Source of the DNA: an archaeon
GTDB taxonomy: Archaea; Asgardarchaeota; Thorarchaeia; Thorarchaeales; Thorarchaeaceae
Length of the DNA: 32,000 nt
Direction: 5' to 3'
Assembly: GCA_024275415.1 (NCBI GenBank)
Contig: JAJRZD010000058.1
Location: forward strand, 1 to 32,000
Shown one piece after another: positions 4,947 to 31,980 of the stretch (position 1 is the first letter of the stretch; every line of letters starts with the position of its first letter). The position numbers were made by a program, and so were the translations under genes. The notes beneath the pieces are model-generated. The model made no database searches. It had not been told where the DNA came from and saw nothing but the letters and a program-made list of their open reading frames with translations.

Positions 4947-5149
4947 GCAGAGTGAATCCGAGAAACAGTCATGGCAAATGGACTAGACTCCTATGTGAAG
5001 TCATTTACAAGTTCCTTAAGATGCTTGATTTTTTTCTAGTATATTCATCCACAACTTGCCATTTGAACCAGTAATGTTCAAGTTCACCTTGGTGATATGT
5101 GCTTGTTGGCAACCTCAAAAATGAAGGGCGGGCAATAGGCGGCTTGATA

Positions 5150-5731
5150 GTGGAAAGGATAATGGTTTTCATCGATGGCATGAACTTTCGCAGGGCGTGG
5201 ATATCTGTTTGTACGGAGAGGGGCATGCCAAGACGTACTCGATTCGATGTGGTCAAACTGCGAAACCTATTGTCCGCGCTATCACCAGATCGTGAAGTAG
5301 TAAGAATACACTACTACAGCTCCACAATCCCACCAAAGGACTCGAAATACTACAACAATCTGAATAGCATCGACCCACGAGGCTTCAATGGAATGCTGAA
5401 GAGGAAAGGCTACAAGTGCTTCATTCTGAAAAATCGAGTCAGACATGAAAAATGTCCTCTCTGCGGGGAGAGATTCCCCATTGTCAAGGAGAAGGGTGTT
5501 GATGTTATGATTGCACTTGATATGATGATGAAAGGGATTGAAAATGCATTCGATGTGGCTCTGCTTGTCAGCGGTGATGCTGATTTCATACCAGTTGTGA
5601 ATCTGCTCACCAAGAAAGGGAAGAAAGTGGAGGTCGCACAGTTTAGTAATGCTATCTCATGGTTCTTGAGAAAGTCAGTGAATAGAGTCTATGATCTTGA
5701 CGGACATTTCGATGGTCTTGTTCTAAAATGA
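5150..5731 (+). CDS. NYN domain (LabA/DUF88) PIN-like nuclease with a CPLCG zinc-knuckle insert
   Basis: VFIDGMNF, KEKGVDVMIALDM, LVSGDADFIPVV and GKKVEV motifs; GTG at 5150 is the likely start. Confidence 0.9.
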   Translation: MERIMVFIDGMNFRRAWISVCTERGMPRRTRFDVVKLRNLLSALSPDREVVRIHYYSSTIPPKDSKYYNNLNSIDPRGFNGMLKRKGYKCFILKNRVRHEKCPLCGERFPIVKEKGVDVMIALDMMMKGIENAFDVALLVSGDADFIPVVNLLTKKGKKVEVAQFSNAISWFLRKSVNRVYDLDGHFDGLVLK

Positions 5732-6101
5732 ATGAAAGGCGAGGCAGTCAGTCATTTCGGTAGAGAATTACGACTGCTACGAGACTTAGTCTACTGCCCG
5801 CCGCGTCGTAATGTAGTTCATGATGAATATTAATAAACATAACGGAACTTTGAAACGATTTCAGAGAATCCGCATTATGAAAGGCATTATAGATACGGTC
5901 TGCTGTGTCTTCAATGACGTACCGGATCTGTGCATAGTTGCCCCAAAGATGAAGAATGTCTAGATTTGCCTATGTCTATTGTTGCTTGATGCGCTTTACG
6001 CAGGCATCGTCATCCTCAGCCCGAGTTTCGGTCCAATCGAAAAAAGATGCAACTCCGATTCTGATTCTTAGATCTGTATGGATATCATAACGACAGCTGT
6101 G

Positions 6102-6109
6102 TATAAATA
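6102..6109 (+). promoter_or_regulatory. Archaeal TATA box of the vapBC operon
   Basis: TATAAATA about 26-33 nt upstream of the ATG at 6135. Confidence 0.55.
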
Positions 6110-6134
6110 GGGATGATATGGATATGTATCAGAG

Positions 6135-6359
6135 ATGGGACTAATGTCAAAAAACATCATGATCAGCAATGAGGTCTATTCACGACTTCGAGCTATAAAG
6201 AGAGATGATGAGTCATTCAGCGATTTGATCCGAAGACTCCTGAATTACCAGAGAACAAGTCTACTTGACCTCGCGGGAGAATGGCCATTTTCTGCAAGAG
6301 AAACCAGTGAGAAAGAAAAACAGTTAGAGGAAACCTGGCAGAAAGGGTGGCGTAAATGA
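6135..6359 (+). CDS. vapB: VapB-type antitoxin (archaeal DUF217-like)
   Basis: SKNIMISNEVYSRL...ESFSDLIRRLL; stop overlaps the PIN toxin start. Confidence 0.85.
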   Translation: MGLMSKNIMISNEVYSRLRAIKRDDESFSDLIRRLLNYQRTSLLDLAGEWPFSARETSEKEKQLEETWQKGWRK

Positions 6360-6772
6360 CTCTATTATCATTGGACACATCATTTCTGATAGATTTTCTG
6401 GCAGGTGAGTCATCGGCCGTAGAGAAAATGAAGCAAATAGAAATCGATGGAGATATGACATCTGTATCAAGTGTTGTCGTATACGAGCTACTCGTCCTGT
6501 CAGCAGATGACCGAAAACCAAACCGAGCTCAGAAAGCAATCAATACAGTAGAATCACTCCTCTCCAGGATAGGGGTTATATGGCCATTTAACACCAGTGT
6601 AGCACGACTTGCTGCAGAAATACAGAGAATTCAGATGCTTAAGGGAAAACCTGTTAGTGTTCGTGACTTGTTCATAGCTGCTTCATCTTTAGCAAATGGT
6701 TGCAACACAGTGATTACGAAGAATGTTAGAGATTTTGAAGTTATAGACGGGATCAAAGTTGAATCGTATTGA
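6356..6772 (+). CDS. vapC: VapC PIN-domain toxin
   Basis: LDTSFLIDFL, VYELL, DLFIAA and ITKNVRDF acidic PIN motifs; 138 aa. Confidence 0.92.
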   Translation: MTLLSLDTSFLIDFLAGESSAVEKMKQIEIDGDMTSVSSVVVYELLVLSADDRKPNRAQKAINTVESLLSRIGVIWPFNTSVARLAAEIQRIQMLKGKPVSVRDLFIAASSLANGCNTVITKNVRDFEVIDGIKVESY

Positions 6773-6875
6773 AACAATAATCAGAACGAAATGTGGGGTA
6801 AGACCAAGATGATTAGTATCAAACGTAGTCATGAAAATGACACCGTACTAGCAGAAAGTAAAAAACTTACCAATC

Positions 6876-7133
6876 TTGTCATCAGGCATTGTAGTCAGAA
6901 CCGTAATTATAGCAAGACGTCTTGGGGTGTCACCTTCCACCTTGAGGAGGTGGGAACGCAAAGGGGCATATATACCACGTAATACGACACTAATGCAGTG
7001 CAGGTCCTGCGGACAAGCTGTGGACCGTCACACCAATGCTGCCATGACCTATGCTAACCGAGCCCTGTCCGCATACCAGGGCTCAATCCAGGCTTCTCCT
7101 TGCGGAGGTGACACGTTTGTACAAGTTCAATAG
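6876..7133 (+). mobile_element. Internally deleted IS607-like remnant (TnpA HTH joined to the TnpB C-terminus)
   Basis: IARRLGVSPSTLRRWERKG (MerR-like HTH of IS607 TnpA) followed directly by QCRSCG..DRHTNAA (TnpB Zn finger and final RuvC motif). Confidence 0.7.
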
Positions 7134-7322
7134 TATGCGTATGTCAGTTTTAGGTGACATACAATCATTAAAAACTATGACAATGAGGATGAATAGCAGC
7201 TCGTAAGATTCCCTTTTCAAAATCACATCTATCATTAACCCCAGCATCCCGTTATTCTCTTGCTTTAATGAATTACTTGATACCATCATAACTGACTGTG
7301 ATGCGAACAATGGCACAATTTC

Positions 7323-8060
7323 GGCTCTGTGTGAAAAGTCACCTCCCGTCGCACTCCAAGAAGTCCAGTCGTGCTATGTTGTGAAGAATGACCTTGAACA
7401 ACAACCCTCGACGCTGCTCCTTGTATCTTCTTGGACTCGACCCTCCACCAGACCTCACCTTCACCATCCCAAAAACGGTCTCCACAAGACTCCTCTTTCC
7501 ATAGCTGTGTTTCTTTTTCCACTCCCTTGGATCTCTCCGGTACTCCCTGATCAACTCCTTGTATCCTCGATAACCCCGTGACCAGGCTTCCAACCTCTTC
7601 TTCGATCCTAGAGCTGGATAGGCTCCCAGGTCATGGATGTATTGGACGTCCTTTCGGGAGATGTAGGCCTTGTCCCCGTAGACATACTGGAGGGATCGAT
7701 GAACCACTCGTTTCAGGGACTGTTGAAGGACGGAGTAGGAGGGAGGTCGCTTGAGACCGAGTCGGTCAAGGAGGAGTGGGGTGAAGCCAAGTTGAGCAAC
7801 AAAGATCCGGTAGATGAGTCCAGAGTCGGACTTGAGGCCCAGGAGGACAAAGAGAGCAGGGAGTGGAAAGTCAGGAGGTCTTCCGAAAGGAGAGGTTTTG
7901 AAAGGTATCATATTGCTAAGCTTGATAAGTCCATCGAGTAAGACCTGATAGTGACGAGACCTGGCTGTGTCGTATGATGACTGGTAGGACATGAATTATG
8001 TGATCCAGTGGGTCTGGTCACATATCCTTGTATTACTTCTTCGACTTTTCACACAGAGCC
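7323..8060 (-). mobile_element. IS5-family (IS903-like) element, 738 bp, perfect 18-bp TIRs, internally deleted
   Basis: GGCTCTGTGTGAAAAGTC at 7323-7340 and its exact reverse complement at 8043-8060; the transposase stop codon lies inside a TIR. Confidence 0.85.
7339..7992 (-). pseudogene. Truncated DDE transposase (IS5 family)
   Basis: YGDKAY and YGKRSLVETVFGMVK motifs present; 217 aa with no recognisable first catalytic Asp region. Confidence 0.75.
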
Positions 8061-9033
8061 CAATATCTCCAAAGGTTTTAATTCCTCTTTCTGCACCAAT
8101 TGCATCAGATCTTGTCGTAGTCATGAATAATGATGACAAGGTATCAGCTGCTGTGAAGCAATTCAAGAGGGAATGAAGAACATTAAGATAGTCACCTTTG
8201 GCTCAATAGATTTTATCCTATCCATATCGAGAATCATTGAGAAAACAGTTTGGGTTTCTCATGGATATGAAGATGGAATATTAACGCTTAGCACCAAAGT
8301 CAGCTAGAAGGACTTTAGTGGCTATATCGATAAGACACCTCGAAAAGACATTGTATTAGCCTGTGAATCTAACAATTTGAAGAATTACATTTCACCTCAG
8401 GATGCCATTGTTTCTGATGGATCTGTTGAAGCTCATGTCATGGGATTTACAGTTGCAGCTGTCCTTCTGGCATCATCCAAAGGGCTCGGGAATCCTGAAA
8501 CCCATGCATCTGTGAACAAAGCCTTTGATGCAATCAATGATATAGCTACTGGTGCTTCAGAACCTCTCTTTCTTGGTTTAATTCCCGCATGGTGGTTGCT
8601 TACCAAAATTGCTTTGATCAGTATTCTGACAGCATGGTGTTTTACTACTGCTGAATCACAAGTACCTGCAGCTCTTGCTGAAGCAGTACATCCAATACTC
8701 ATTATTTTCGGAATCGCATTCATCTTCAGTACATTTTCTTCACTGTTGTTGCTTCTGGTTCAAGATGCATTTCCGGGATTCTCGTCTTTCCTATCGATTG
8801 TTTCTGTATTTCTAAACTTATTAGCAGGACTGGCAATTCAAAAAATCATCCAAGGTGCATTGCATGGCGGTGCATACCTGCTTGGCTTAGCAGCTGGAAA
8901 AGCCGCTAGTTTGACTGGTGCAAGTGTTTCGTGGTCTCAACCATGGATTAGAGCAGCTTTTGCAGCATCTGCTGCAATACTCGCTGTTTCCATCATTGAC
9001 TTTATAGTGGTTACAGTCTATACACTGATGTAA
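8061..9033 (+). pseudogene. Disrupted gene: caspase/CHAT-like His-Cys domain followed by hydrophobic Ala/Gly-rich helices
   Basis: The frame from ATG 8173 reads VWVSHGYEDG...VS*KDF...IVLACES with an in-frame TAG at 8305-8307 and runs into ORF 8377..9033. An upstream piece (8061-8176) is in another frame and abuts the IS end. Confidence 0.55.
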
Positions 9034-15354: not shown

Positions 15355-15405
15355 TTTACTCGACCATGAAATCGAATAAAGCTATTAAAGCTCTTCCTAA
15401 AAGAT

Positions 15406-15537
15406 GGCTCTGTGTGAAAAGTCAGCTGGAGGGTTCTGTTTGAAATCAGCATGGATGATTGCGTGTCAAAATTCCAACACCTCACTCCTTACCACCATCG
15501 ATCTTATGATGTCCGGTCGGACTTTTCACACAACTCC
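15406..15537. mobile_element. 132-bp MITE, copy 1
   Basis: Left end is identical to the IS TIR; right end is GACTTTTCACACAACTCC; about 85% identical to 21102..21233 by manual alignment. Confidence 0.85.
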
Positions 15538-16402: not shown

Positions 16403-17107
16403 ATGACTGCAAAGAAACGTATTGTGTATATTGCGACTGTTGGGAGTAGTATTGAACCAGTTCAAAAGGGAATTCTCTATGCATCGCCTGATATCGCATA
16501 TCTTCTATTTGGGGCAAGTCCAAAGCTTAAAGAGAGAAATCCAGAGCTTGTCGCACGGAAGGTTAAGGAGAACATAAAACCATTGGGGCTAACAAAATGT
16601 CATCTCCGAGAGATTGATGCTTTCTCCTTAGAGAGTGTTATGACCGAGGTTATCAAAATCTGGCAGAAACACATGAAGGACAGAATCATCGCCAATATGA
16701 CAGGGGGAACTAACATTATGGCTTCTGCCTGTCTTCTTGCAGGTTTCACTGCATCCGCAGATGTGATCTATGTGAAGGAAGTGCAGGAAGGAGAAGATAT
16801 TCCACTTCGTGAGCAAGTCATCGTTCTTCCAACTCCGAGAATCCCTCTCACTAGCTTGACTGACGAACAACAGGAGATACTCCGACTACTCCTGAATGAA
16901 ACTGAGGCTGGCACAACTCTTCTCGCAAGGGCAAATAGCAGAATTGCAGACCATATGAAAGTAACGCCTCAGACAATTTCGCACCACCTTAAACGCATGG
17001 AACAGAAGGCATTGATACGCCGGGAGAAGGAAGGTAGGCACCTGAATGTAGAACTAACCCCATCAGGGCTTCTATTTGCAAGAATGCTTGAAAAAACAAA
17101 AGAGTGA
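16403..17107 (+). CDS. csa3: Csa3-like CARF-winged-HTH transcriptional regulator
   Basis: N-terminal CARF (YIATVGSSIEP, IIANMTGGTNIMA, DVIYV) and C-terminal wHTH (IADHMKVTPQTISHHLKRME..LI...GR...ELTPSG). Confidence 0.8.
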   Translation: MTAKKRIVYIATVGSSIEPVQKGILYASPDIAYLLFGASPKLKERNPELVARKVKENIKPLGLTKCHLREIDAFSLESVMTEVIKIWQKHMKDRIIANMTGGTNIMASACLLAGFTASADVIYVKEVQEGEDIPLREQVIVLPTPRIPLTSLTDEQQEILRLLLNETEAGTTLLARANSRIADHMKVTPQTISHHLKRMEQKALIRREKEGRHLNVELTPSGLLFARMLEKTKE

Positions 17108-17784: not shown

Positions 17785-18759
17785 ATGGTATCGCGGGGGT
17801 ATGAATTGAGAGCGTTTTCGTCTTCGGGCTTCAAACCATTGGAAATTGTAAGTGATGGCGACCTTGATGGAATTTTTGCGGTAGGCATTCTGTTAAGGTA
17901 TTTTGATAGCGTTGGTATTTCGATACCATCTCGATTTCCCGCACCTAGAGAGCTACACAATCTCACTGTGGAAGATTCGATTCTTGTCGAGCTCGGTCCA
18001 ACAAAGGGACTACGGTTCAGAGGACATAATATGTTGATTGACCATCATGAGGGTTTCTCTGGGATTTACATGTTCAATGGCCCCGATATGGAAAGTCCAA
18101 TAGCAGAATTCGATGGTATAATGTCGGTGGTAGAAATCGTAGTGGCATATCTGAACAACGAAATCTTGATCGACTCTAGTATGCAAGAGTTAATCGACAT
18201 TGTGGGTGAGATTGACAATGGTGTATACAATCATCCAAAGGCTCGTGCTCTGCACCATGCATACATGCTAAACGTGACATCGAAAGAGATGAGGCAGAAA
18301 CTCCCAGAATGGGTACGAACTAATCAAGTGGACGTAATCTGGAAGTGGGTTGAGGTCGAATCGAAACGATGGGAACAAGTCCAGACGGTATCAGCAGCAT
18401 TGATTGATTCTGTATCAGAGGTGTCCTCAGATATCGGATTCATTTTAGTCGATTTAGATGATAATATCCAACAGATGGCTGCACGCGAGGCTATGCTTCA
18501 ACTAGAGGAACAATATAGAATCGTAATAACACTACTAGGAACCCATAACAAAGAATGGATGATCTCCCGAGGCGGCATCGGTTCAAAGAGTCATTCCGTT
18601 GACTTCACATCATTATATGACCTTCTCAGAGAGAAAGGACTGACCGCGGGTGGACGACCAACAATTGGAGGGTTTCAGTTTCTAGAGCCATATCCACTGG
18701 CCAATGTTCTCGTTCTGCTACGTAATGTTCTTGCGAGGGTTAGTGATGACAGAAAATAA
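17785..18759 (+). CDS. DHH/DHHA1-family phosphoesterase
   Basis: SDGDLDG (DxDG), LVELG, LIDHH, GEID and C-terminal AGGRPTIGG (variant of GGH..A.G). Confidence 0.85.
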   Translation: MVSRGYELRAFSSSGFKPLEIVSDGDLDGIFAVGILLRYFDSVGISIPSRFPAPRELHNLTVEDSILVELGPTKGLRFRGHNMLIDHHEGFSGIYMFNGPDMESPIAEFDGIMSVVEIVVAYLNNEILIDSSMQELIDIVGEIDNGVYNHPKARALHHAYMLNVTSKEMRQKLPEWVRTNQVDVIWKWVEVESKRWEQVQTVSAALIDSVSEVSSDIGFILVDLDDNIQQMAAREAMLQLEEQYRIVITLLGTHNKEWMISRGGIGSKSHSVDFTSLYDLLREKGLTAGGRPTIGGFQFLEPYPLANVLVLLRNVLARVSDDRK

Positions 18760-19873
18760 CAAATTAAAAGTGCATAGAGAAAAATCGTTCAAATTAGCGA
18801 ATCTTGATATTGCAGCATCGATGTACGAGTATATAGAAATCGACGAAGTGGAGTTAGAATGGGTAGACAAGTTTCTTACTATGAGGGCTTATGAGGACAA
18901 GCCGTCCAAGAAAACAAAAGCAGATTTTGATAAACACTGGATCGTAGGGAAACTTCTAATTAAGATGCCTTACTCGTTGACTTGTAGAAGTTCTGATGAT
19001 GTGCAGATGAAAAAAAATGAAGATAGTAACTCATTAGATTTAGAAATACGTTTGAGAGATGTGATTCCGGAGGTTAATCTACTTCTAAACCAAATAATTG
19101 CGATTGTCTATGATGGTTCTCGTGACAAAATTCTACGCGAGATTCAAAGCAGTGTGAATATAGCTATTGAAGAGATGCTGTCAACAATGAAAACAGGGCA
19201 AATAAGTCCCTTTCTGTGCTCACTAAGTCTGTTCAAGTCAAAAATAGATTGGCTAAGAAGGACGGATGCAAAGGATTTCAAACCTCAGCACTCGGTATCA
19301 AATGATTGCAAGCAGCTTCGTGTTAGTTTAAGTTCACAAGATTCCGTTAGTCAATTGCTGGGATATTTCGATAACACAGCTAAATACAATTTGTATGTCT
19401 TTACTGTTGGAACGTTTGATCCTATTCTGTTAGAAAGATACAGTAAATTCCTGGATGGGTTAATTTCTGATGGAACAAAGTACATGTTGTTTGTTGGCAC
19501 TGAGTATTCAGGGAAGGAACTGGATAAGATATCTAACAACATTAGAAACCAAGAAATTAAAATAAAAAAAATCACAATCTATTCTTCAAAGGATAAAGCA
19601 TCACCTAACGGAACTGACCGGATATCTAAGGAAATTGAGGGAATGGACAGAATTGATAAAGCGGCAGTCATAATCTCTGCATTTCCAAAGAAACTCATAA
19701 AACCTTTACTTCAGGACTGCAAGCAATTGCTCAAATGTGGGGTAGGATCGGTGGATATCGTATCCACCGCTACAATACCGCTCCCAGCTCCAATTGAAGA
19801 TGATGATGGTTCTCCAACTAGAAAGCCTCGCATAATAGGATTCATTATGGGGCAAATCGAGGATTTCGTATAA
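18746..19873 (+). CDS. Uncharacterised protein with a putative divergent C-terminal CARF-like domain
   Basis: The ATG at 18746 overlaps the DHH stop region; the C-terminal 160 aa show a beta-alpha pattern YVFTVGTFDP..YMLFVGTE..AVIISAFPKKL..VDIV. Confidence 0.6.
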   Translation: MTENNKLKVHREKSFKLANLDIAASMYEYIEIDEVELEWVDKFLTMRAYEDKPSKKTKADFDKHWIVGKLLIKMPYSLTCRSSDDVQMKKNEDSNSLDLEIRLRDVIPEVNLLLNQIIAIVYDGSRDKILREIQSSVNIAIEEMLSTMKTGQISPFLCSLSLFKSKIDWLRRTDAKDFKPQHSVSNDCKQLRVSLSSQDSVSQLLGYFDNTAKYNLYVFTVGTFDPILLERYSKFLDGLISDGTKYMLFVGTEYSGKELDKISNNIRNQEIKIKKITIYSSKDKASPNGTDRISKEIEGMDRIDKAAVIISAFPKKLIKPLLQDCKQLLKCGVGSVDIVSTATIPLPAPIEDDDGSPTRKPRIIGFIMGQIEDFV

Positions 19874-19893: not shown

Positions 19894-21090
19894 ATGGAGA
19901 TAGGATATTTTGTAAAACTTGATGACAATTCCAGAAAGTATTTCTACAAATACCTCGATGCTCTAAGCTTTTTCTCTCTCTCTGTCGACGAGTCCGCTTT
20001 GAGGAATGTTAGTCTTATCGGAATCACATCTTCTCTAGACAATTGTAGATGTCACAGAAATCTTACTTTCTATTTATCTAAAGGCCACACCAGCAAACAA
20101 ATGAAATCTCTAAGGTTACTTTTAGAAGGGCTGAAATATGCTTCTGCCAATCCATTGATTCCATTTGACGCCGATTGCACATTGGTAACTTCAGATAACG
20201 CCGTAAATCCCCAACTAGAACGGTTCCATAATGTGTACTCGGCCCATATGAAGGCACCAAAAGCTAACTGTTGTAATGTGCTCTCCATTCTACCATGGTT
20301 ACTACATCATGATCGCACAGGGCATTGGCTTAGGAAAAAAATCGCTCAGGATTTACTCAAACTCCACCAATTGAGTCTTGCGAATTATTTTGGAGCACCA
20401 TGCACTAGTATGACTGATGTCATGTCAGGGATAGAGTCGGTCATGTTCGGAGCATACGAGCGCAAGCTACGACCACCATCATCACAGGGGCATACAACAG
20501 GATTCGACAAATTCATTGAGAAGCACAAAATCCAAGATATAAGAGAGTTTATCGAGAAGCTTGAAGAAATCGATTTGGGAAAATGCAAAAATCTCTTTGA
20601 AAAAATATGCAATATTGATGAGTCCATTCTAACAACAACTTTTGGAAGACTTGCAAGACAAGGCCAGGATGAGATGCTGAACTATTCGGATTATAAAAGT
20701 CACGGTCTTGATGAAATAGAAAGAACAGATAATGATTGCATCCTTTTTATGACTGAACAGACAGGCCTTTTTGATGTCTTACTTGCGATGAAGAAATATG
20801 GGAAGCTATACATAATGTACTCGCCTCTAGTCATAGTGCATAGATTTCTTACTGAAGCGATTCGTTCAACAATTTCAGGGTCTAGCTCGATGGGGTGTGA
20901 AGTGAGTCATCATTTCTATCCTGCATATACACCACAAGTGGTTGAAGCCTTGATAAAAAACATTCGAAAATGCAAAAACAATCAGCTTGATATTATCGTC
21001 GGAGGATCTGAGGGTGTATACCTTGTATTAATGAAAATGAAGAATCAACAACCTGAAAGAATCAAGTTGATGACATCGATTAAAGAGTAA
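19894..21090 (+). CDS. Uncharacterised protein with a putative divergent C-terminal CARF-like domain
   Basis: AGGAGG ribosome-binding site at 19881; C-terminus ILFMTEQ..KLYIMYS..YTPQVVEALIKNI..LDIIVGGSEGVYLVL. Confidence 0.6.
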   Translation: MEIGYFVKLDDNSRKYFYKYLDALSFFSLSVDESALRNVSLIGITSSLDNCRCHRNLTFYLSKGHTSKQMKSLRLLLEGLKYASANPLIPFDADCTLVTSDNAVNPQLERFHNVYSAHMKAPKANCCNVLSILPWLLHHDRTGHWLRKKIAQDLLKLHQLSLANYFGAPCTSMTDVMSGIESVMFGAYERKLRPPSSQGHTTGFDKFIEKHKIQDIREFIEKLEEIDLGKCKNLFEKICNIDESILTTTFGRLARQGQDEMLNYSDYKSHGLDEIERTDNDCILFMTEQTGLFDVLLAMKKYGKLYIMYSPLVIVHRFLTEAIRSTISGSSSMGCEVSHHFYPAYTPQVVEALIKNIRKCKNNQLDIIVGGSEGVYLVLMKMKNQQPERIKLMTSIKE

Positions 21091-21101
21091 TGCCCAGCAT
21101 T

Positions 21102-21233
21102 GGAGCTGTGTGAAAAGACAGCTGGAGGTTTCTGTTTGAAATTAGCATGAATGATTGCGTGTCAGAGTTCCAACACCTCGATCCTTATCACCATTGATTT
21201 TATGACGGCCGATGGGACTTTTCACACAGAACC
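21102..21233. mobile_element. 132-bp MITE, copy 2, with a perfect 9-bp target-site duplication
   Basis: CCCAGCATT at 21093-21101 and 21234-21242; 18-bp imperfect TIRs. Confidence 0.9.
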
Positions 21234-21828
21234 CCCAGCATTCATGTAATTTTACAAAGGACGTACCCGACGAACTGGATATACTTCAGAATCAATCATG
21301 GAAATCCACTTCTGGAAATTTTTCTGTCCCTTGATTGGACTAGTCCTTTGAATATGCACAATGCAGGCCAGATACCTGATAAAGAGTCGTTGGTTCCAAG
21401 ACCGGTCAGACTGCGGCTCTGGAATAATCCGAATGATATGGAAGAAAGTTGCAAGTTTTGAACATGGTCTTGTCACTTTTCGGACAACCAAAATGAGAAC
21501 GGCGAGTCATTCTCATCAAACATTATGGACTGGAGGGACTTTTTCCATTGAGCCTCAGACTGGAAAATCAATAAAAAAAAGAATGTGGTCGCTCAGGTCG
21601 TTTCCAACATCACACTCCAGCCCTATATGATGAATTCTGTTTTGGATTACTGGAGGTATTCAGAAAATTTCTCTGCTGTGGTAGTTCTCACGGCACTGTA
21701 GAATGATGCGCTAGTTCATAGAAGCAATATCAACGATTAATGGATTCGTTTCTAATGCTGAAGGTTTGGTTCTCACTCAATGCCTAAGACTGTGATTTAG
21801 TCTACAGGGTCAGTTCTCACGGCAGAAA

Positions 21829-21861: not shown

Positions 21862-23301
21862 GTGGGGGTGTGGATTATCCCATTTCTGGTTGCAATAAAA
21901 GCATTAAAGATTCAAGATTTGATTCATAGTTCTTCAAGACTGAAAGAAGTCGCAGGTGGAAGCCACCTTTTGGGCATGTATTGTGAAGTGGTTTCAGAAA
22001 GAATCGCAAAACACATCACCCAAGGGGATAGAAACAAGTATGATTTCAAGCGTAACAAGGGGGGTGTCGTAATTGCCACCTTTGACGATGAAGAGCATGC
22101 CAACGAGTTTATTCGTTTTATGAGAGAATGTTATCGGAGGTTATTTGGTCGTCGAGTCATAAGTTCAACTGCGCCGATCGAAATCAACAGCGACACATCT
22201 AGAGATCTAGAGGAATTGGAAAATGATATCATTCGTTCACGATATGCAGGATTTCCGCCTAGCTCGCACATTCAAAATCCTTATGTCAAAATCTGCTGGT
22301 CGTGTGGTGAAAGACCCGCGGAAATAGAAGATCCTGACTCTTTATCCTCCAACATGACATCAACACATCGTCACGTTTGTGCCCCATGTGGATTGCGATT
22401 TCGGATTTTTAAGGATTACAAGGAGATTATGGAACGCAAACTAAGCGGGCCGTTCAACAAAATTCCTTCTGGAGTTGATGATATTGCAAAACATGGCCCG
22501 AATGGCTATGTTGCATACATGCTGAGTGACGGGAATAGCTTTGGATCCTTTGTACGTGAAATAAAGGATATGAATAGTTACACGGCATTCAACAATGCCC
22601 TTCCGAAAACAGTTTCAGATAGTCTATTCTCGGTTCTTGACGAATTTGATTCAACCAATACTGACATCACTGCTCCCATGCTTCCCCTTATGACAGGGGG
22701 CGATGATTTGCTAATTCTTCTTCCCGCAAAATGGGGGATAAGCATGGCATTTGACTTTGTTAGTAGATTCGAAGAAAAAGCCAAGAAACTTATAGACTGC
22801 TCTAACAGTAAACAAATGCTTACTATGTCAGCAGGCGTCGTCATATGCAAGCAAACCCTCTCACATAAAATCGTTTATACAGTCGGAGAGAGTGTCATAA
22901 AAAGGGCAAAGCAGACCTCGAAGGAGCACGGAGTCTGTTCTTCCGTGGCATTTCAAATTCTCGCGGGTTCTAAACGAGGTTCCGAAACATCTTACAATAG
23001 ATTGATGCCTGGAGGTGTCTGTGGTGGTTTCAAAAAAACAGAACTAGAGAACGTCCTTGCATATCGCAAGCGGTTAGAGAAATTGCCTTCTGGATTGAGA
23101 AGAAGATTGAAACATCACCTCTTTTCGGATTCCGCACATGCGGAAACTGAGAGAGAGAGGATATTAGAACTTATTTCTGAACGAGATGATTCTATGGCTG
23201 AAGAGGTCAAAAAACTGCTGAAGGACGAAAAGCAAATCCTTTTTGCAATGCTTGAAGGGTGGGATTACTTGGAGAGTCATAAGGGGGCGATCATAAAATG
23301 A
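21862..23301 (+). CDS. cas10: Cas10, type III-D, lacking the HD domain; intact Palm2 GGDD
   Basis: KIQDLI..RLKEVAGGSHLL (Palm1), CWSC...CAPC zinc finger, SDGNSFG, MTGGDDL, MSAGVVI; 479 aa. Confidence 0.93.
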   Translation: MGVWIIPFLVAIKALKIQDLIHSSSRLKEVAGGSHLLGMYCEVVSERIAKHITQGDRNKYDFKRNKGGVVIATFDDEEHANEFIRFMRECYRRLFGRRVISSTAPIEINSDTSRDLEELENDIIRSRYAGFPPSSHIQNPYVKICWSCGERPAEIEDPDSLSSNMTSTHRHVCAPCGLRFRIFKDYKEIMERKLSGPFNKIPSGVDDIAKHGPNGYVAYMLSDGNSFGSFVREIKDMNSYTAFNNALPKTVSDSLFSVLDEFDSTNTDITAPMLPLMTGGDDLLILLPAKWGISMAFDFVSRFEEKAKKLIDCSNSKQMLTMSAGVVICKQTLSHKIVYTVGESVIKRAKQTSKEHGVCSSVAFQILAGSKRGSETSYNRLMPGGVCGGFKKTELENVLAYRKRLEKLPSGLRRRLKHHLFSDSAHAETERERILELISERDDSMAEEVKKLLKDEKQILFAMLEGWDYLESHKGAIIK

Positions 23302-25415
23302 AATTGCATTTCACTCTCAGGTTCTTATCGGACTTTCATCTTGGTTCTGGGAAAGGGTCGTCAGAGGTAGATGGATTGCTTGTGCGTGAATCTGATGATG
23401 CAGATGCACAGTTAACAATCAAAGGAACAACTATTGTGGGTGTGTTGCGGCAGTCACTCTATGATTTGATACAATTGAATCCTTTTAGCAACGAAAGAAA
23501 ATGCAAGCGTTCAGGGAAAAGTAACGGGAGTGAATTTTGTACAGGATCTAAAGAAGAACAGTGTCCTATATGTCGTATTCTTGGGACACCAAAACAAGTA
23601 AAGCCATGGTTCTTTTCTTCTGGACGACTGTCAGACGATGTGTCAACACAGACAATCACTCGTTCGTCAATAGATAGAGAAACCAGGACAAGTAAAGAAG
23701 GAAAATTATTCACATATGAGGTGGGTTCGAAAGAAACAAGTTTCCAGTTCGTTGTGGAACATGATGTTTCTTCATCAGATGTTTTGTGGGATGCTGCATA
23801 TATTGTTGCAGGCTTTCGATTCATAAGGTCATTGGGATCTAGTAGGAGAAGAGGAAAAGGTAGATGCATCATCAACCTAACTAAGGTACAACCCGACATA
23901 GAGGGAGAGAATCCTCAATCATTCTTCTTGGAATTGTTTAATCAAGTATATACTGGTGGCAATAATGTTGAAAAGCCTGAAGAGCTTGATAAAGCAAAAA
24001 TAGCAGCCAATGCAGCTGAGTATATAGTAGAAGTTCGGACAGAAGAACCAGTCCTCATAACTCAGAATAGAGGTTCTGGCAATCTGTATTCAGGACTTGA
24101 CTTCATTCCAGGATCTACTCTCAGAGGAGCATTGGCATGGAAGGCGATTCGTGGAGGCATTCTTGCCTCTGAAGAAGGAGAAGAGATTTTCAAAACCATG
24201 TTCACCGAAGGGAAACTTCGAGTCGGAAATTGTTATCCAGCAGGACATGATGACAAAGCAGCAATACCCACCCCGATGAATCTTCGATTCTGCGAGTTCT
24301 ATCCAAACCAACACGATATTTCAAGAAACATGAAACACCCAATGAAATGTGAATCGTGCAGAAAAGAGAATCGAGAGGCAAAAATGGACAAGAGCAAACA
24401 CTTTCTCGATTCAAACATGATGCTCGTCAGGAATAACTCAACCCACGACATGCATATCGAAATTGATCCTGAGGAAGGTACTGTAAGAGAAGGTGTATTA
24501 TATGGATATGAAGGTATCTCGATGAAATCTAGATTTCTCGGAGCCATCAATGTAGAACCCGAGATTCTCTCCAAATTCTTAGGATATTTCTATGATGATG
24601 TTAAACAAGAATCAGAGAAGATAGCAATACAATTGCAGATTGGAAAGGCAACTAGGAGAGGCTATGGAAAATCAATTGTTACTCTAACACCGAAATCGAA
24701 TGTGTTGTATGTGTATACATGGGACTCGATTGAGAATAGAGTAAATACGATTAACAAAACATTCACGCTGACATTCATATCTGACGCGATACTGATAGAC
24801 AAATATGGCCGCTATCTTAATCAAATCAATAAAGATTATTTGTATGGGCTTTTGGGATATGAAACCGAAATTGTTGGGCAAGTTATTAGAACCAAGTACG
24901 TCGAGCAATTTGATATGCGAAGCGGACTCCCCCGGTGGCGCAACAGTGCAATCATTGCAGGTTCCGTAGTAGAATTCAGGCTTAAAAATACAACTGATGT
25001 CGACGTGAAGGGGCTTCAAGATAAACTTAAGGAAATCGAGTCCAACGGAGTAGGCATAAAAACAGTGGAAGGATTTGGAGTCGTCTGCTTTAATCATCCT
25101 GCTCAAATCCTAGTCTGTTTACAAAATCGTCAAGCAACACAGGATGCGGAAAGACAAAAAGAAAAGGAACTTGAAACTGTTAGGGATGTTAGAGAACCTG
25201 ATAAGAAAAGCAAGGAAAAACTTGTAGCCATTGCTAGATTATTATACACAGGGGAGGGAGAAGTGGACAAGCTGGAGAAGATACAGAAATCGCTTAAACA
25301 GGATGATGAATTAAGAATTCACCTCAGAAGAATCATCAATGAAATCAAGAAATACAAGCAGGAGGGCAAAAAGATTAGCGATATCGCGGAACGAATCTAT
25401 GAGGGAGGGATCTAG
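23298..25415 (+). CDS. csx10: Cas7-Cas5 (Csx10) fusion with a C-terminal helical, putative Cas11 region
   Basis: FHLGSG..VDG, IKGTTIVGVLR, LGSSRRRGKG (Cas7); FIPGSTLRGAL, GKATRRGYG, GIKTVEGFG (Cas5/Csx10); charged helical last 100 aa or so. Confidence 0.85.
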   Translation: MKLHFTLRFLSDFHLGSGKGSSEVDGLLVRESDDADAQLTIKGTTIVGVLRQSLYDLIQLNPFSNERKCKRSGKSNGSEFCTGSKEEQCPICRILGTPKQVKPWFFSSGRLSDDVSTQTITRSSIDRETRTSKEGKLFTYEVGSKETSFQFVVEHDVSSSDVLWDAAYIVAGFRFIRSLGSSRRRGKGRCIINLTKVQPDIEGENPQSFFLELFNQVYTGGNNVEKPEELDKAKIAANAAEYIVEVRTEEPVLITQNRGSGNLYSGLDFIPGSTLRGALAWKAIRGGILASEEGEEIFKTMFTEGKLRVGNCYPAGHDDKAAIPTPMNLRFCEFYPNQHDISRNMKHPMKCESCRKENREAKMDKSKHFLDSNMMLVRNNSTHDMHIEIDPEEGTVREGVLYGYEGISMKSRFLGAINVEPEILSKFLGYFYDDVKQESEKIAIQLQIGKATRRGYGKSIVTLTPKSNVLYVYTWDSIENRVNTINKTFTLTFISDAILIDKYGRYLNQINKDYLYGLLGYETEIVGQVIRTKYVEQFDMRSGLPRWRNSAIIAGSVVEFRLKNTTDVDVKGLQDKLKEIESNGVGIKTVEGFGVVCFNHPAQILVCLQNRQATQDAERQKEKELETVRDVREPDKKSKEKLVAIARLLYTGEGEVDKLEKIQKSLKQDDELRIHLRRIINEIKKYKQEGKKISDIAERIYEGGI

Positions 25416-25418
25416 ACC

Positions 25419-27089
25419 ATGATAGGATTGGTAATTCGAGGGAAACTGAAACTTTTGACAAATCTGCACATCGGTTCCGGCATTTCGAATGACTACACCG
25501 ATTTACCTGTTATTCGCGATTCCGAAGGTATGGTCTTCATCCCAGGTACGTCGATTGCTGGAGCATTGCGAAGTGGTCTAGAAAAACTGCAGGAAATGAT
25601 AGATATTGACCACATTGAAGAACCACTTTGCGACTGTCCGGCTTGCACCCTCTTTGGGTCATTTCCATCTACCGAGTATGAAAGGGATTTGTCGCCAACT
25701 CTGACCGCATCAAAGATTTGGGTGTATGACTCGTACGTTTCCTCAGCTGCAAGTAAGGACAGATCGATTTCATCTATTCGCGATCATGTCGGTATAAGCA
25801 GAGTTAATTCAACGGCAGCCTATCACGCCAAGTATAATGAGGAGTCCGTGGTTGCAGGAACTGAGTTTGATTTCTGTATCGCGATAGAATCTGATGCGGA
25901 ACACCTTCACATGCTTGCGGCAGTCCTGAATGAATGGAAGTCAGGACGGGGCGCTCTAGGAGGTGGCCGGTCAAAAGGCTTTGGGAGAGTCAAGCTTGAT
26001 AACATCAAGGTTTTCAAAATCAATCTTTCATCCATTGATAAAGTTATAGCCTATTTACAATGCGATGATATACTGACAGCGGTGAGTTCTTTGTTTCTCT
26101 CTGAGGAGCCTAATTGGCTGCAGGATGAACTAGATAGAAGTAAGGATTGCTTTGCCACAGACAAATCAAGGAGAGTGTATACCGAAATCGACCTAAAATT
26201 GACTGTCGATGGAGGAGTGGTTGTGAGTGACATCGTTTCAGAGGTTATTGAAGATACGGATATCGCACCTATCAAACAATGTGACAAGTATATTATTCCC
26301 GGATCTTCATTGCGAGGCGCTTTCCGAGCCCAAGCTGAACGGGTTGCTAGAACAGTTGTGACGATGGATACAACAGACCGTGGTGATTACTTGAAGAAGT
26401 GTCCCGCATGCCATCCCTTCAATCTTCCCAGTTCGAAAAAGGGCAGTTGTGAATCGGGTTACAGGGTCAAGATAGAGGAAGGACAAATAGTTGACATAAA
26501 AAGTGAGGTATGTCTTGCTTGCCGCTTCTTTGGGATGACTCATCTTGGTAGTAGGATATCCATCTCAGATGGGATTGTAGAAAAACATCTGGAGCCAGAC
26601 CGATTCAATTTTGTAGCAATCGACCGATTTACCGGTGGAAGCCTAGATAAAGCGCTGTTTAATGCAAAAGTTCTAATGTATCCAAAATTCAAAACGAAAA
26701 TAATCATAGAAAATCCAGCAGATTGGGAGTTGGGATGGCTCTATCTTGTCATTCGTGACATTCAAGATGGGTTTGTGTCCATTGGTTGGGGAAAGAGCAA
26801 ATGGTTTGGTCGACTAGGTTTAGAGAGTATTAACGTAAGAGAACTTTGGACAATTGAAAAGTCAGTACAAGAGAAAACGGATGTAGAAGGTGTATTTGTT
26901 ATAAAGAACAGGTTTTCTTCATTCGATAATCTGTGGAAAGAAGCAGCTAAATCGTATTGCAGTGAATTTCTAAAAACATTGAGTGCTCATGAATGGGGAC
27001 TGCAAAATGGTGAGGACTCGTACTTCAAGGAAGTAAATGATACATTATCACTTTCGGATATCTATCCTAGGGAGGGATTACAAAAATGA
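25419..27089 (+). CDS. cas7: Cas7-Cas7 tandem RAMP (Csm3-like x2)
   Basis: Two RAMP repeats: LHIGSG..TD..IPGTSIAGALR..LGGGRSKGFG and IPGSSLRGAFR..IDRFTGG..IGWGKSKWFG. Confidence 0.9.
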   Translation: MIGLVIRGKLKLLTNLHIGSGISNDYTDLPVIRDSEGMVFIPGTSIAGALRSGLEKLQEMIDIDHIEEPLCDCPACTLFGSFPSTEYERDLSPTLTASKIWVYDSYVSSAASKDRSISSIRDHVGISRVNSTAAYHAKYNEESVVAGTEFDFCIAIESDAEHLHMLAAVLNEWKSGRGALGGGRSKGFGRVKLDNIKVFKINLSSIDKVIAYLQCDDILTAVSSLFLSEEPNWLQDELDRSKDCFATDKSRRVYTEIDLKLTVDGGVVVSDIVSEVIEDTDIAPIKQCDKYIIPGSSLRGAFRAQAERVARTVVTMDTTDRGDYLKKCPACHPFNLPSSKKGSCESGYRVKIEEGQIVDIKSEVCLACRFFGMTHLGSRISISDGIVEKHLEPDRFNFVAIDRFTGGSLDKALFNAKVLMYPKFKTKIIIENPADWELGWLYLVIRDIQDGFVSIGWGKSKWFGRLGLESINVRELWTIEKSVQEKTDVEGVFVIKNRFSSFDNLWKEAAKSYCSEFLKTLSAHEWGLQNGEDSYFKEVNDTLSLSDIYPREGLQK

Positions 27090-27631
27090 ATGACGAAGTG
27101 GCAGACATTATCGATGAGTTGCTGGCTGATTCTCAGGTCAGTGAGGATATTGTAGTATACCATGGAGTGACACAAGAGCCAAAAGATATCATCAAAGAAT
27201 TCTTTCCCAGTAACAGTGGACTCTGTATCTGCGAGGGGCTCAATGGTATCCGTTTCGAAAAACAACAGGATTTTTCGTCGGATGACATGATGATCAGATT
27301 GAAGGTGTTCGATGAAGATGGAGACCTTGAAATCTGGCGGATAGATGAGAATTTTGGTTGGAGATTTATTGGTAAACCGAAAGGCAATCAAAAACACGAA
27401 CAACTCGAGTTGGATAAAGACCATTGGTTCGTAAGAGAGATAAAGGTCAATCTCTGGGGGTCTGAATCCCGTGATGGTCAGAGGTTCGAGTCCAGAATGG
27501 CAGCTGCAAATCTAAGATATCCCATTGATGATACATCAAAACCGGTGAATCTAAGGATACGAGAATACTCAAGAAAGGGTACACTTCAATTCGTAAGATA
27601 TGTCAGTCTAGAAACGGAGGGGGATAAATGA
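27086..27631 (+). CDS. csx19: Csx19
   Basis: RLKVFDEDGDLEIWR, LWG, LRYP, IREY..FVRY pattern; canonical position between the Cas7 genes. Confidence 0.85.
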   Translation: MNDEVADIIDELLADSQVSEDIVVYHGVTQEPKDIIKEFFPSNSGLCICEGLNGIRFEKQQDFSSDDMMIRLKVFDEDGDLEIWRIDENFGWRFIGKPKGNQKHEQLELDKDHWFVREIKVNLWGSESRDGQRFESRMAAANLRYPIDDTSKPVNLRIREYSRKGTLQFVRYVSLETEGDK

Positions 27632-29622
27632 ATTCCATTTTCAAATTTTATAATCCATACAATTTTGTTAGACCTATTAGAAAGAGGGATTCATCATCTA
27701 TCGATAAGGATTCGATTCTGATGGATAGATGCCCACCACCGCCCCATGATCGGTACATCAGCTATACAGGTCGAATTCAGTGCAGGCTTGAAGTGAAAAC
27801 ACCATTACTTATTGGTATGTATAAGGATTCTGACATGCCAAATAATAGTGCAAGAAGAATCGAATTCTTCAAGATGAAGAGATCAGATGGCAAGCTCACA
27901 CCGACAATTCCTTCCTCATCTCTCCGAGGAGTGATCAGGTCAGTATTCGAGGCAGCTACGAACTCATGCTTTGCCATCTTCGATGACTCAAGACTATTCA
28001 AGAGGATGAAGCCGGAAAAAAGCTTGGAGTTCATCCCAGCTAGACTAGAAAGGAACGGAAATAGTTGGATTGCCAGATTGTTCAGGGGGCCCAGAACAAA
28101 AACTGACGATGATCACCTTCAATATGCAGCGTGGATTAAAGCGTACAAAGATGAGGCGACACACCAAAGAGCTGATAGATATCAAAAAAGGCCAAAAATA
28201 AGAGAACTAAAAGATTTCAAGCATGGCGAAAAATGTTATGCGATAATAGAGAATAAAGAATACTCTCGAGGACGATTTTGTTTTCATAACGTGATATCTT
28301 TGCACAATACTCAACCCGAAAAGGTTGATAATGATCAGTATTGTGTAGAAGGGTATGTTTACAATAAAGGCAAGAATATTAGACGTAAGCATGACGAACG
28401 ATTCTTTTTCCCTGCAGATAGTAAGGAAATATGTGAAATATCTGAAGGAGTAATTGCAGACTACAAGAAGCTTCTTGATGAACGTGAGAACAAAGAAAAG
28501 CTGTTTAATGGTAGCTTGGTATGGGTGAAACCGAGCGAGAATGAAAAAGAAGTAGATGCAATTATCCCCGTTGCAATATCCAAGATTCGTTATCACAAGT
28601 CCAGAGGTGACCTTCTTGCGCAGTATGACCTTTTGAATTGCACAGACATCTCTAAACTATGTCCAGCTTGTCGGGTTTTCGGATGGGTACCTGTAACAGA
28701 TCAACAAACAGATTTGCGAGATTCTGGATTCAAGGGGAGAGTTGGTTTCAATCATGCATTTCTAAAAGATCAGAAGCATTTGAAGAAAGAGGAATTGATA
28801 CTTACCTTAGCGAGTCCTAAGCCTACAGCGAAGTCGTTCTATTTGTTAGATGATGAAACACCTTCAGGTCAAGTGGATTACGATTCACATAGTGCATCAA
28901 TTCGTGGTAGGAAATTCTTCCTTCATCACAAGAGATTCACATTCCCGCAAGGAAAAAGTAAACCTAACGAAAAAACCGATACAATCATCACGGAATTCGT
29001 TGGCTACAAAGCTGATTTTGATTTCGTAGTTGAGTTCGAAAATCTAGCTGCTGTTGAACTCGGTGCTTTGGTTTGGGCGCTCACACTTGAAGAGGGAATG
29101 TATCACCGACTTGGTATGGCGAAAGCTTATGGATTTGGTAGTGTAAGGATATCCATCAAGGAGGATGGTCTTATACTATATGACATGCGGAGTAGATACA
29201 CTAGCTCCAAAAAAGTGCTGAACCAACCTGCCGATTCGAGATCATTCATTCAGTCGTTCAAGAAGGCTATGAAGAAACTATATGGTGAATTTGATGAGCT
29301 GGGTAATATCAAGGATTTGAAATCTATCCTATCAGGTCCAGATGATGATATTCCCATTCATTATCCGAGATGTAAGAGGGAATACTCGGATGACAATAAG
29401 GGCTATGAATGGTTTATGGCTGCAAAGAAACACAAGGGAGTATTATCAAAAGCAGTCCCTTTGAAACCGCTTGATTCTAAACCGTGTCGAGAAGAACAGA
29501 ATAAAAAATCACAAAATAAAACAAAGAGAGGGGCACGAACACGTGGACATAAATCCAAAGACAAGCAAAAGGGTGGAACTAGAAAAAAGAAGGGCCGACA
29601 TTCATGGCAGACTCGGAGATAG
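27628..29622 (+). CDS. cas7: Cas7 with a large insertion (terminal type III-D RAMP)
   Basis: FYNPYNFV, IPSSSLRGVIRS, LCPACRVFG, LASPKPT, RGRKFF, LGMAKAYGFG. Confidence 0.9.
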   Translation: MNSIFKFYNPYNFVRPIRKRDSSSIDKDSILMDRCPPPPHDRYISYTGRIQCRLEVKTPLLIGMYKDSDMPNNSARRIEFFKMKRSDGKLTPTIPSSSLRGVIRSVFEAATNSCFAIFDDSRLFKRMKPEKSLEFIPARLERNGNSWIARLFRGPRTKTDDDHLQYAAWIKAYKDEATHQRADRYQKRPKIRELKDFKHGEKCYAIIENKEYSRGRFCFHNVISLHNTQPEKVDNDQYCVEGYVYNKGKNIRRKHDERFFFPADSKEICEISEGVIADYKKLLDERENKEKLFNGSLVWVKPSENEKEVDAIIPVAISKIRYHKSRGDLLAQYDLLNCTDISKLCPACRVFGWVPVTDQQTDLRDSGFKGRVGFNHAFLKDQKHLKKEELILTLASPKPTAKSFYLLDDETPSGQVDYDSHSASIRGRKFFLHHKRFTFPQGKSKPNEKTDTIITEFVGYKADFDFVVEFENLAAVELGALVWALTLEEGMYHRLGMAKAYGFGSVRISIKEDGLILYDMRSRYTSSKKVLNQPADSRSFIQSFKKAMKKLYGEFDELGNIKDLKSILSGPDDDIPIHYPRCKREYSDDNKGYEWFMAAKKHKGVLSKAVPLKPLDSKPCREEQNKKSQNKTKRGARTRGHKSKDKQKGGTRKKKGRHSWQTRR

Positions 29623-31518: not shown

Positions 31519-31980
31519 ATGGCAGATGGTGGGGATACCATGCAGAAAACTAGGTTGGTCTTAGACACATCAGTGTTCATGTTGGGAGGGTCGAATTTCA
31601 CATTCCGCCAGATAGAATCCAAGCTTGCAGAGAACACTCATGTCTTCGTATTTCTTACATGTGTGCGAAAGGAGTTGACGAAAAAAGCTGATGAGGGGTC
31701 TTCTGATGCCGTTGCGGGTCTGAAGCGTCTTGAAAGAATAACAAGACTATATACAGGTGCTACCGAAGTGCTCTACGTCCAGCAGACCTATGCGGACGAC
31801 CCGATATATGGATATCTTGCAAGGTGTACTGAAGCTACAGAATTCATAAGCAGAGATAGAGAACTCAAGCAGCGAGTCTATGACCTTAGAAATCCGCATG
31901 TCAGAGTATTCGACATTACTAGAAACGGGAAAATCCTCGAATTCGACCCTGATTGGAGACCTTATAGTAGATTCACGTAG
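31519..31980 (+). CDS. PIN-domain protein (Fcf1/Utp23/VapC9-like)
   Basis: LVLDTSVF, CVRKEL, ADDPI, FISRDRELKQRV. Confidence 0.8.
   Translation: MADGGDTMQKTRLVLDTSVFMLGGSNFTFRQIESKLAENTHVFVFLTCVRKELTKKADEGSSDAVAGLKRLERITRLYTGATEVLYVQQTYADDPIYGYLARCTEATEFISRDRELKQRVYDLRNPHVRVFDITRNGKILEFDPDWRPYSRFT

Follow-up and report, generated by a model that had tools for sequence, protein, structure and literature searches.

A divergent DHH/DHHA1 phosphoesterase in a three-gene module with a CARF-fold protein beside type III CRISPR loci of Asgard archaea

The window analysed here, a stretch of 32,000 nucleotides (nt) from a Thorarchaeaceae archaeon (contig JAJRZD010000058.1 of assembly GCA_024275415.1), encodes P0001, a divergent member of the DHH/DHHA1 phosphoesterase superfamily. 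Its gene is the first of a conserved three-gene module upstream of a type III-Dv-like CRISPR operon; the second gene encodes P0002, a protein with a C-terminal CARF fold, and the third encodes P0003. The module recurs beside type III genes in other genomes and is probably an undescribed part of type III CRISPR second-messenger signalling, in which P0001, as a best guess guided by analogy, may erase the messenger. In type III immunity, a nucleotide alarm signal has to be produced and afterwards cleared. CARF-type ring nucleases, Crn2, and Crn3 are known to clear it, as are NrN, DEDD enzymes, and lyases in the case of the S-adenosyl methionine (SAM) conjugate SAM-AMP. No DHH-CARF module is mentioned in five papers searched for one (PMC11229360, PMC12669027, PMC12409355, PMC6546367, PMC8284326), the main CARF classification paper lying outside that search.

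Fold and motifs of P0001 and its partners

P0001 is a DHH/DHHA1 superfamily member by fold and motifs and belongs to a branch that curated models miss. Searches of P0001 against Pfam (PF01368, PF02272), NCBIfam, and PADLOC gave no DHH match even at E<=10, and among eight of its relatives Pfam recognised DHHA1 in seven and DHH in five, all weakly (best E about 5e-5). The AlphaFold2 (AF2) model of P0001, built on an alignment, had a mean predicted local distance difference test score (pLDDT) of 89.2 and a predicted template modelling score (pTM) of 0.82. Its top Foldseek matches were DHH/DHHA1 enzymes only (best E 6e-9, probability 1.00), namely PggH, PAP phosphatase, TM1595, NrnA, GdpP, and RecJ. 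VIA-align superposed 246–301 residues, within residues 8–324, on RecJ-like proteins, PAP phosphatase, PggH, TM1595, NrnA, and GdpP with Z-scores of 16.4–12.3. A profile of eight homologues, compared with solved structures, gave a sole significant sequence match, the PAP phosphatase 8a8k (E 2.5e-6), and the AGGR of P0001 aligns with the AGGK of that enzyme.

The sequence-only reading had described P0001 as a DHH/DHHA1 phosphoesterase with intact metal-binding motifs that carry an E variant in motif II and a GGR variant in DHHA1, and both the fold and the conservation of the motifs (listed in the table) in 53 family sequences bear this out. D28 and D86 are present in all 53 sequences, D26, E69, H87, and H88 in 52 of 53, and D144 as D or E in 52 of 53, while the GG[R/H/K] motif ends with R in 39 sequences, with H in six, and with K in five. 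Since E69 is near-invariant and the R of GGR prevails among these relatives, both are, on the alignment, conserved family traits and not signs of decay, and judging from its residues P0001 is apparently catalytically active. The protein has no membrane segment, as residues 8–324 all belong to a soluble two-domain fold and the N-terminal 20 residues are not of hydrophobic character, although this was judged without a dedicated transmembrane predictor. In the model, extra helices lie between the DHH and DHHA1 domains (residues about 151–208, window 18235–18408), and seven residues of this insert, H157, Y160, S166, M169, R170, W188, and W196, are invariant in eight homologues. The insert appears to be family-specific and could serve as a partner- or substrate-binding surface.

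The C-terminus of P0002 is, in the predicted structure, a CARF fold (AF2 model, pLDDT 74.7). Its residues 213–373 aligned with Can2 at Z 11.4 (root-mean-square deviation 3.0, 130 residues) and with Card1 at Z 11.2, followed by further CARF matches to Csm6, Cam1, Crn1, and Csa3. In the VIA-align rankings, the first 22–35 places were held by CARF proteins without exception (22 in the ranking of 48,161 representative chains), other Rossmann folds scoring Z 7.0 or less. The CARF signature is also visible in the homologues: the loop G after strand 1 is invariant and followed by T in four of six, and a K/R after strand 4 (PFPK segment) is kept in six of six. Residues 1–200 (window 18746–19345) are predicted to form a strand-strand-strand-helix-strand arrangement, in which the invariant D33 and E50 fall on consecutive predicted strands, with ExK found in six of 10 homologues. 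As a lead, this pattern recalls the signature of a PD-(D/E)xK nuclease, and if the N-terminal domain is one, P0002 would be the module's effector.

Other searches with the partners returned little. The ESM Atlas gave no usable match for P0002 or P0003, and PDB sequence profiles gave nothing significant for either, P0002 yielding weak matches to designed Rossmann proteins. A word-index homologue search with P0002 returned P0002 alone. P0003 had no match in Pfam, NCBIfam, PDB, or the Atlas, and P0002 likewise matched no protein family.

The three-gene module and its type III neighbourhood

The order DHH, P0002, P0003 is conserved, with gene ends that overlap or nearly abut; in the window, 14 nt are shared between the end of the DHH gene and the beginning of P0002. 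Contexts of the module were drawn from genome and metagenome scans, and the loci carrying it are included in the table. In three of them, DHH and P0002 form one polypeptide, and a fourth fusion, P0019, has its P0002 part recognised at E 2e-11. A search of 400 Asgard genomes found strong P0002 and P0003 matches confined to six genomes with a high-scoring DHH, and these matches were always adjacent to the DHH gene. In L039 (positions 4826–7283, contig C52 of G296), the P0002 homologue contains in-frame stops and the P0003 homologue is present as two open reading frames (ORFs), with the DHH gene intact.

The module stands beside type III genes in six of the seven contexts with enough sequence. 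L048 and G318 repeat the arrangement of the window, with the same III-Dv operon immediately downstream of the module, and their Cas10 proteins are 57–61% identical to that of the window. In G001, cmr1-cmr6 come immediately before the module and share its strand; in G313, the module has a Cmr1 gene on one side and a Cmr1/Cas10/Cmr3 cluster on the other; and in L050, a gene for an 886-residue Cas10 and several RAMP genes lie divergently upstream of it. The module thus spans at least three kinds of type III system (III-Dv, III-B, and one with a Csm1-like Cas10) and is therefore a portable accessory. A DUF499, DUF1156 methyltransferase-like, and SNF2 helicase anti-phage set occurs directly upstream of the module in L001 (655–9044, G318 contig C52), and the G318 module and its III-Dv locus are therefore in a defence island.

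The Cas10 next to the module in the window matches Pfam Cas10 palm2 at 6e-11 and PADLOC Cas10 at 2.4e-46, and its nearest solved chain is the Synechocystis III-Dv Cas10 8s9t (E 2e-6). The regulator encoded upstream of the module matches Pfam HFX_2341_N (1.7e-11), DUF6293_C, and MarR, as well as NCBIfam Csa3 (3.7e-13). A Csa3-like CARF regulator is found beside the module in two loci, the window and L036 of G313. The window contains no CRISPR array on search.

Table. Features of the window, motifs of P0001, and loci carrying the three-gene module
Feature	Position	Strand	Description	Basis
P0001, first module gene	17785..18759	+	Divergent DHH/DHHA1 phosphoesterase, 324 amino acids; uninterrupted ORF, ATG at 17785, stop ending at 18759, 324 codons	ORF, AF2, Foldseek, VIA-align, motifs
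Motif I of P0001	residues 23-29		SDGDLDG, D26-x-D28	
Motif II of P0001	E69		Replaces the usual D (carboxylate retained)	
Motif III of P0001	D86-H87-H88			
Motif IV of P0001	D144			
DHHA1 phosphate-binding motif of P0001	A288-G-G-R291, then G295-G296		GGGH-type	
P0002	18746..19873	+	375 amino acids; N-terminal domain and C-terminal CARF (residues about 213-373)	AF2, VIA-align
P0003, third module gene	19894..21090	+	398 amino acids; follows P0002 in every homologous locus	
Csa3-like regulator	16403..17107	+	CARF(HFX_2341_N)-winged helix-turn-helix, upstream of module	Pfam, NCBIfam
Cas10	21862..23301	+	HD-less, 479 amino acids, GGDD kept	Pfam, PADLOC, translation
III-Dv-like effector operon after cas10	23298..29622	+		NCBIfam, Pfam
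Csx10-like RAMP fusion	23298-25415	+		NCBIfam/Pfam
Double Csx7	25419-27089	+		NCBIfam/Pfam
Csx19	27086-27631	+		NCBIfam/Pfam
TIGR03986 RAMP	27628-29622	+		NCBIfam/Pfam
128-nt direct repeat, family D4	15405-15532 and 21101-21228		87% identity	Repeat search
Module in L048			DHH 54% identical to P0001	
Module in G318	L001 continuing on L081		DHH 60% identical to P0001	
Module in G313	L036			
Module in G323	L040			
Module in G296	L039		Apparently decayed: stops in P0002, split P0003	
Module in G001	L038		DHH and P0002 one polypeptide, 704 amino acids (P0013)	
Module in L050			DHH and P0002 one polypeptide, about 720 amino acids	
Module in L058			DHH and P0002 one polypeptide	

Messenger and role of the DHH protein

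The most probable role of P0001, held tentatively, is that of a signal-degrading partner of a CARF sensor-effector in a type III accessory module, hydrolysing cyclic oligoadenylate (cOA) or linear products. On binding target RNA, the neighbouring HD-less Cas10 with its GGDD motif would make cOA, to be bound by P0002 through its CARF domain, probably in a pair with P0003. This binding would switch on the N-terminal domains of the two proteins, among which the D...ExK domain of P0002 may be a nuclease. The DHH protein, putatively coupled in translation to P0002 and, in some lineages, joined with it in one polypeptide, would hydrolyse the free messenger, or linear oligoadenylate, to AMP, and destruction of the messenger by a soluble metal-dependent enzyme would make the response self-limiting. 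If this is true, a DHH/DHHA1-CARF operon or fusion would represent a new construction of the off-switch.

Precedents exist for the separate elements of such a switch. With the ring nucleases and the cOA-degrading class in general, P0001 shares a position in a type III locus with a partner of the cOA-sensor type (six of seven contexts; CARF fold of P0002). Csx1-Crn2 ('fuse to defuse', 10.1101/2020.03.11.987685) likewise joins a CARF sensor/effector to an enzyme that destroys its activator, but it relies on Crn2 (DUF1874) for erasure and on HEPN as effector, whereas the module described here uses DHH/DHHA1. As cited in PMC8284326 and PMC7854544, the membrane-associated DHH-DHHA1 nuclease MAD of Sulfolobus islandicus degrades cA4, the cyclic tetra-adenylate (Zhao et al. 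2020), and from these citations MAD would be a precedent for an archaeal DHH-DHHA1 enzyme acting on a type III messenger; it is described there as membrane-associated and non-specific, whereas P0001 lacks a membrane segment and is tied to a CARF protein in type III loci. The best matches of the P0002 CARF domain, at Z 11.4–9.4, are Can1, Can2, and Card1 (8q3y, 6wxw, 6sce), which combine CARF with PD-(D/E)xK, and P0002 has a possible D...ExK. Two dissimilar chains, if both bear CARF, could also imitate the two-CARF layout of Can1. P0002 differs from these proteins in its reversed order, with CARF at the C-terminus, in the use of two separate genes, and in a nuclease fold that is putative; no DHH partner is known for those families. 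In its logic the proposed mechanism resembles the Csx1-Crn2 and NrN-CorA fusions, assembled from different parts.

Which messenger the module would handle can be approached through its neighbours. The sequence-only reading leaned toward a messenger other than cOA, a lean countered by the CARF partner, the Csa3-like regulator, the III-Dv kinship of the Cas10, and the ordinary III-B loci. Because of the CARF partner, the Csa3-like regulator, the lack of CorA, a nearest solved Cas10 that makes cOA, and the service of the module in ordinary III-B loci as well, cOA-type signalling is placed well ahead of SAM-AMP, short of proof. CARF domains are the usual sensors of cOA (PMC12669027), and the Synechocystis III-Dv Cas10 makes cOA that activates Csx1 (PMC11026444). 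No CorA occurs among the window ORFs or the scanned neighbours in homologous loci, as the earlier reading had noted for this DNA, and the two Pfam CorA genes of the host genome lie on other contigs (C21 and C100).

That P0001, like NrN, removes a messenger other than cOA, for instance SAM-AMP or SAM-AMP2, is accordingly given little probability. This reading is favoured by the related type III-D2 complex, which makes SAM-AMP and SAM-AMP2 and uses CorA (PMC13294483), and by NrN itself, the DHH enzyme of a Bacteroides fragilis type III-B locus, which is tied to CorA and degrades SAM-AMP, not cOA (PMC10600005). Like P0001, NrN is a small soluble DHH/DHHA1 protein in a type III locus, has its DHH at 85–87 (86–88 in P0001), and has among its nearest structures PggH and GdpP, which also match P0001; it is sometimes fused to its signal-sensing partner CorA and has been proposed as an off-switch (PMC10600005). 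Against this, the partner of P0001, adjacent or fused, is CARF, whereas a single sensor of SAM-AMP has been described, the CorA N-domain (PMC10600005, PMC12669027), and the module also accompanies ordinary III-B Cmr loci. The likely messenger of P0001 is then cOA, which NrN does not cleave. P0001 is further distinguished by E in motif II, by GGR, and by a divergence beyond the reach of the Pfam DHH and DHHA1 models; the earlier analogy to NrN, taken as family membership, finds no support.

The Cas10 of the window adds one further argument on each side. Its K13 stands at the position of E8 in III-D2, in a low-confidence N-terminal alignment anchored on GGS alone with a score of about zero, and this would indicate an unusual pocket. 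A basic residue there would suit a triphosphate acceptor more than it would SAM, whose methionine part carries a positive charge, and since the cOA-making III-Dv Cas10 is also acidic at the E8-equivalent, the position does not separate the use of SAM from that of ATP. An HD-less III-Dv Cas10 with an unusual acceptor pocket may also make a messenger that is neither standard cOA nor SAM-AMP, sensed by CARF-type partners and erased by a dedicated divergent DHH enzyme, marked by its E in motif II, its GGR, and its extra helical insert. This is a long shot; if true, it would provide a new triad of signal, sensor, and eraser in Asgard archaea.

Several observations weigh against P0001 as an eraser of cOA. 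The structural scores, effectively tied at Z 16.4–14.8, do not split small-substrate phosphodiesterases from RecJ-like exonucleases. Comparison of P0002 with P0003 by hhalign, over the full length and with the P0003 C-terminus set against the P0002 CARF region, found no relationship, and the nuclease proposed for the P0002 N-domain consists of a motif and predicted strands, its ExK lysine being lost in the fused clade. One context of the seven, G323, has the full module and no cas gene on its 17.5-kb contig. Solo DHH relatives that lack a CARF partner have gene surroundings of a housekeeping type (UppP, sugar kinase, DNA ligase), and the DHH family is therefore not intrinsically a signalling enzyme. 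Finally, the visible parts of four module-bearing type III loci show no recognised cOA-dependent effector, so the module may itself be the effector, with DHH as its catalytic output.

Such an output is a serious though doubtful alternative. In it, cOA-bound CARF partners would activate a DHH exonuclease acting on RNA, single-stranded DNA, or an essential small nucleotide, leading to dormancy or clearance of the invader, and the enzyme would be a new class of cOA-controlled enzyme. Apart from the lack of a recognised effector in those four loci, the fused order DHH-DHHA1-Ndomain-CARF resembles that of enzyme-sensor effectors, the highest VIA-align scores are those of the archaeal RecJ-like exonucleases PF0399 (Z 16.4), RecJ-Cdc45 (16.1), and MjaRecJ2 (15.9), and solo relatives without CARF partners stand beside cmr genes (L074/L075, L079). 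The same structural comparison can be turned around, as the Z differences are within the range of ties and the Foldseek list is headed by the small-substrate enzymes PggH, PAP phosphatase, and TM1595. P0001 has only 324 residues, without an OB or other nucleic-acid-binding domain, and the N-domains of P0002 and P0003, about 200 residues each, could be the effectors instead. The lack of an RNA-binding domain also speaks against P0001 as an exonuclease of CRISPR RNA (crRNA) maturation, trimming the 3' ends of Cas6-cut crRNAs. Solo members, which stand beside a Cas6-like gene in L004 and L053 and within cmr clusters in L079 and L074/L075, would suit this improbable role. Among the RecJ-like DHH enzymes of archaea there are 3'-5' exoribonucleases, and to our knowledge no archaeal crRNA-trimming nuclease has been described. 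In the systems studied, however, crRNAs are trimmed by host nucleases, and trimming would not explain why the DHH protein is obligatorily coupled, or fused, to a CARF protein.

The least probable explanation is that P0001 is a housekeeping nanoRNase or pAp phosphatase and a chance neighbour of the CRISPR locus. The sole significant sequence link to a solved protein is to a PAP phosphatase, 8a8k of Methanothermococcus thermolithotrophicus, which carries AGGK in place of GGGH, and several solo relatives occur in conserved metabolic neighbourhoods. With 8a8k, PggH (7d62), NrnA, and TM1595, P0001 shares the two-domain fold and the size, but those enzymes serve housekeeping sulfur or nucleotide metabolism and are 12–17% identical to P0001, whose clade is patchy, CRISPR-linked, and CARF-coupled. 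Family matches were found in none of six other genomes of the same genus and in seven of 85 of the same family, and the host genome already has three canonical Pfam DHH genes, on other contigs. Strict synteny, fusion to the CARF protein, and type III adjacency recurring across subtypes also argue against a chance neighbour. Clustering with housekeeping NrnA or RecJ, named in the sequence-only reading as an outcome that would speak against signalling, was not seen in this clade: the family profile misses the three canonical paralogues, and the gene is missing from the six congeneric genomes.

Spread of the family and other features of the window

The family profile search found 83 representatives at E<=1e-3 among 1.84 billion clustered proteins, and a word-indexed homologue search with P0001 found nine relatives, two of them labelled Candidatus Thorarchaeota by source. 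A scan of viral contigs for the DHH family found no relative, and a viral anti-CRISPR version of the DHH protein is therefore unsupported. In a quick tree of the family, module-bearing members fall into at least two clusters mixed with solo forms, its deep nodes being unresolved, and no order of events was drawn from this tree. The distinct branch, invisible to Pfam, thus includes both housekeeping-like and CRISPR-linked lineages. With about 83 representative family proteins, the module is small, belongs to Asgard archaea, and moves between type III subtypes, and it offers a compact three-protein system directly testable in E. coli.

Solo members differ in their surroundings. In L004 (10877–11695, a Thermoproteota genome) and L053 (1176–1703, a metagenome contig), the Cas6-like gene is convergent with and immediately beside the solo DHH gene; the 20 kb of L004 that were viewed showed no genes for type III effectors. 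In L074 and L079, where solo DHH genes are linked to cas genes, small ORFs lie next to them that are related neither to one another nor to P0002. Another arrangement is seen in L070 (3442–13041), with a gene for a protein of about 1800 residues, UppP, the solo DHH gene, a sugar-1-phosphate nucleotidyltransferase, and a TrmB-like regulator. This layout is repeated in L062, L064, L065, L066, L071, and L073, and these solo DHH proteins are 29–32% identical. The loci of this type suggest a housekeeping branch of the DHH family in metagenome lineages.

In the window, the two copies of the 128-nt direct repeat bracket a PAS gene, the Csa3-like regulator, and the genes of P0001, P0002, and P0003, and a 27-nt piece of the repeat is also present at 8043–8069. 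The spacer between P0003 and cas10 is 771 bp long in the window, where it contains one repeat copy and an 89-codon ORF (21361–21630), vs less than 100 bp in L048; the repeat-bearing spacer looks like an inserted miniature mobile element. VapC-like PIN toxins accompany III-D2 loci (PMC13294483). Downstream of the type III operon of the window, an ORF at 31519–31980 has a weak PIN_9 match (E 1.6e-4).

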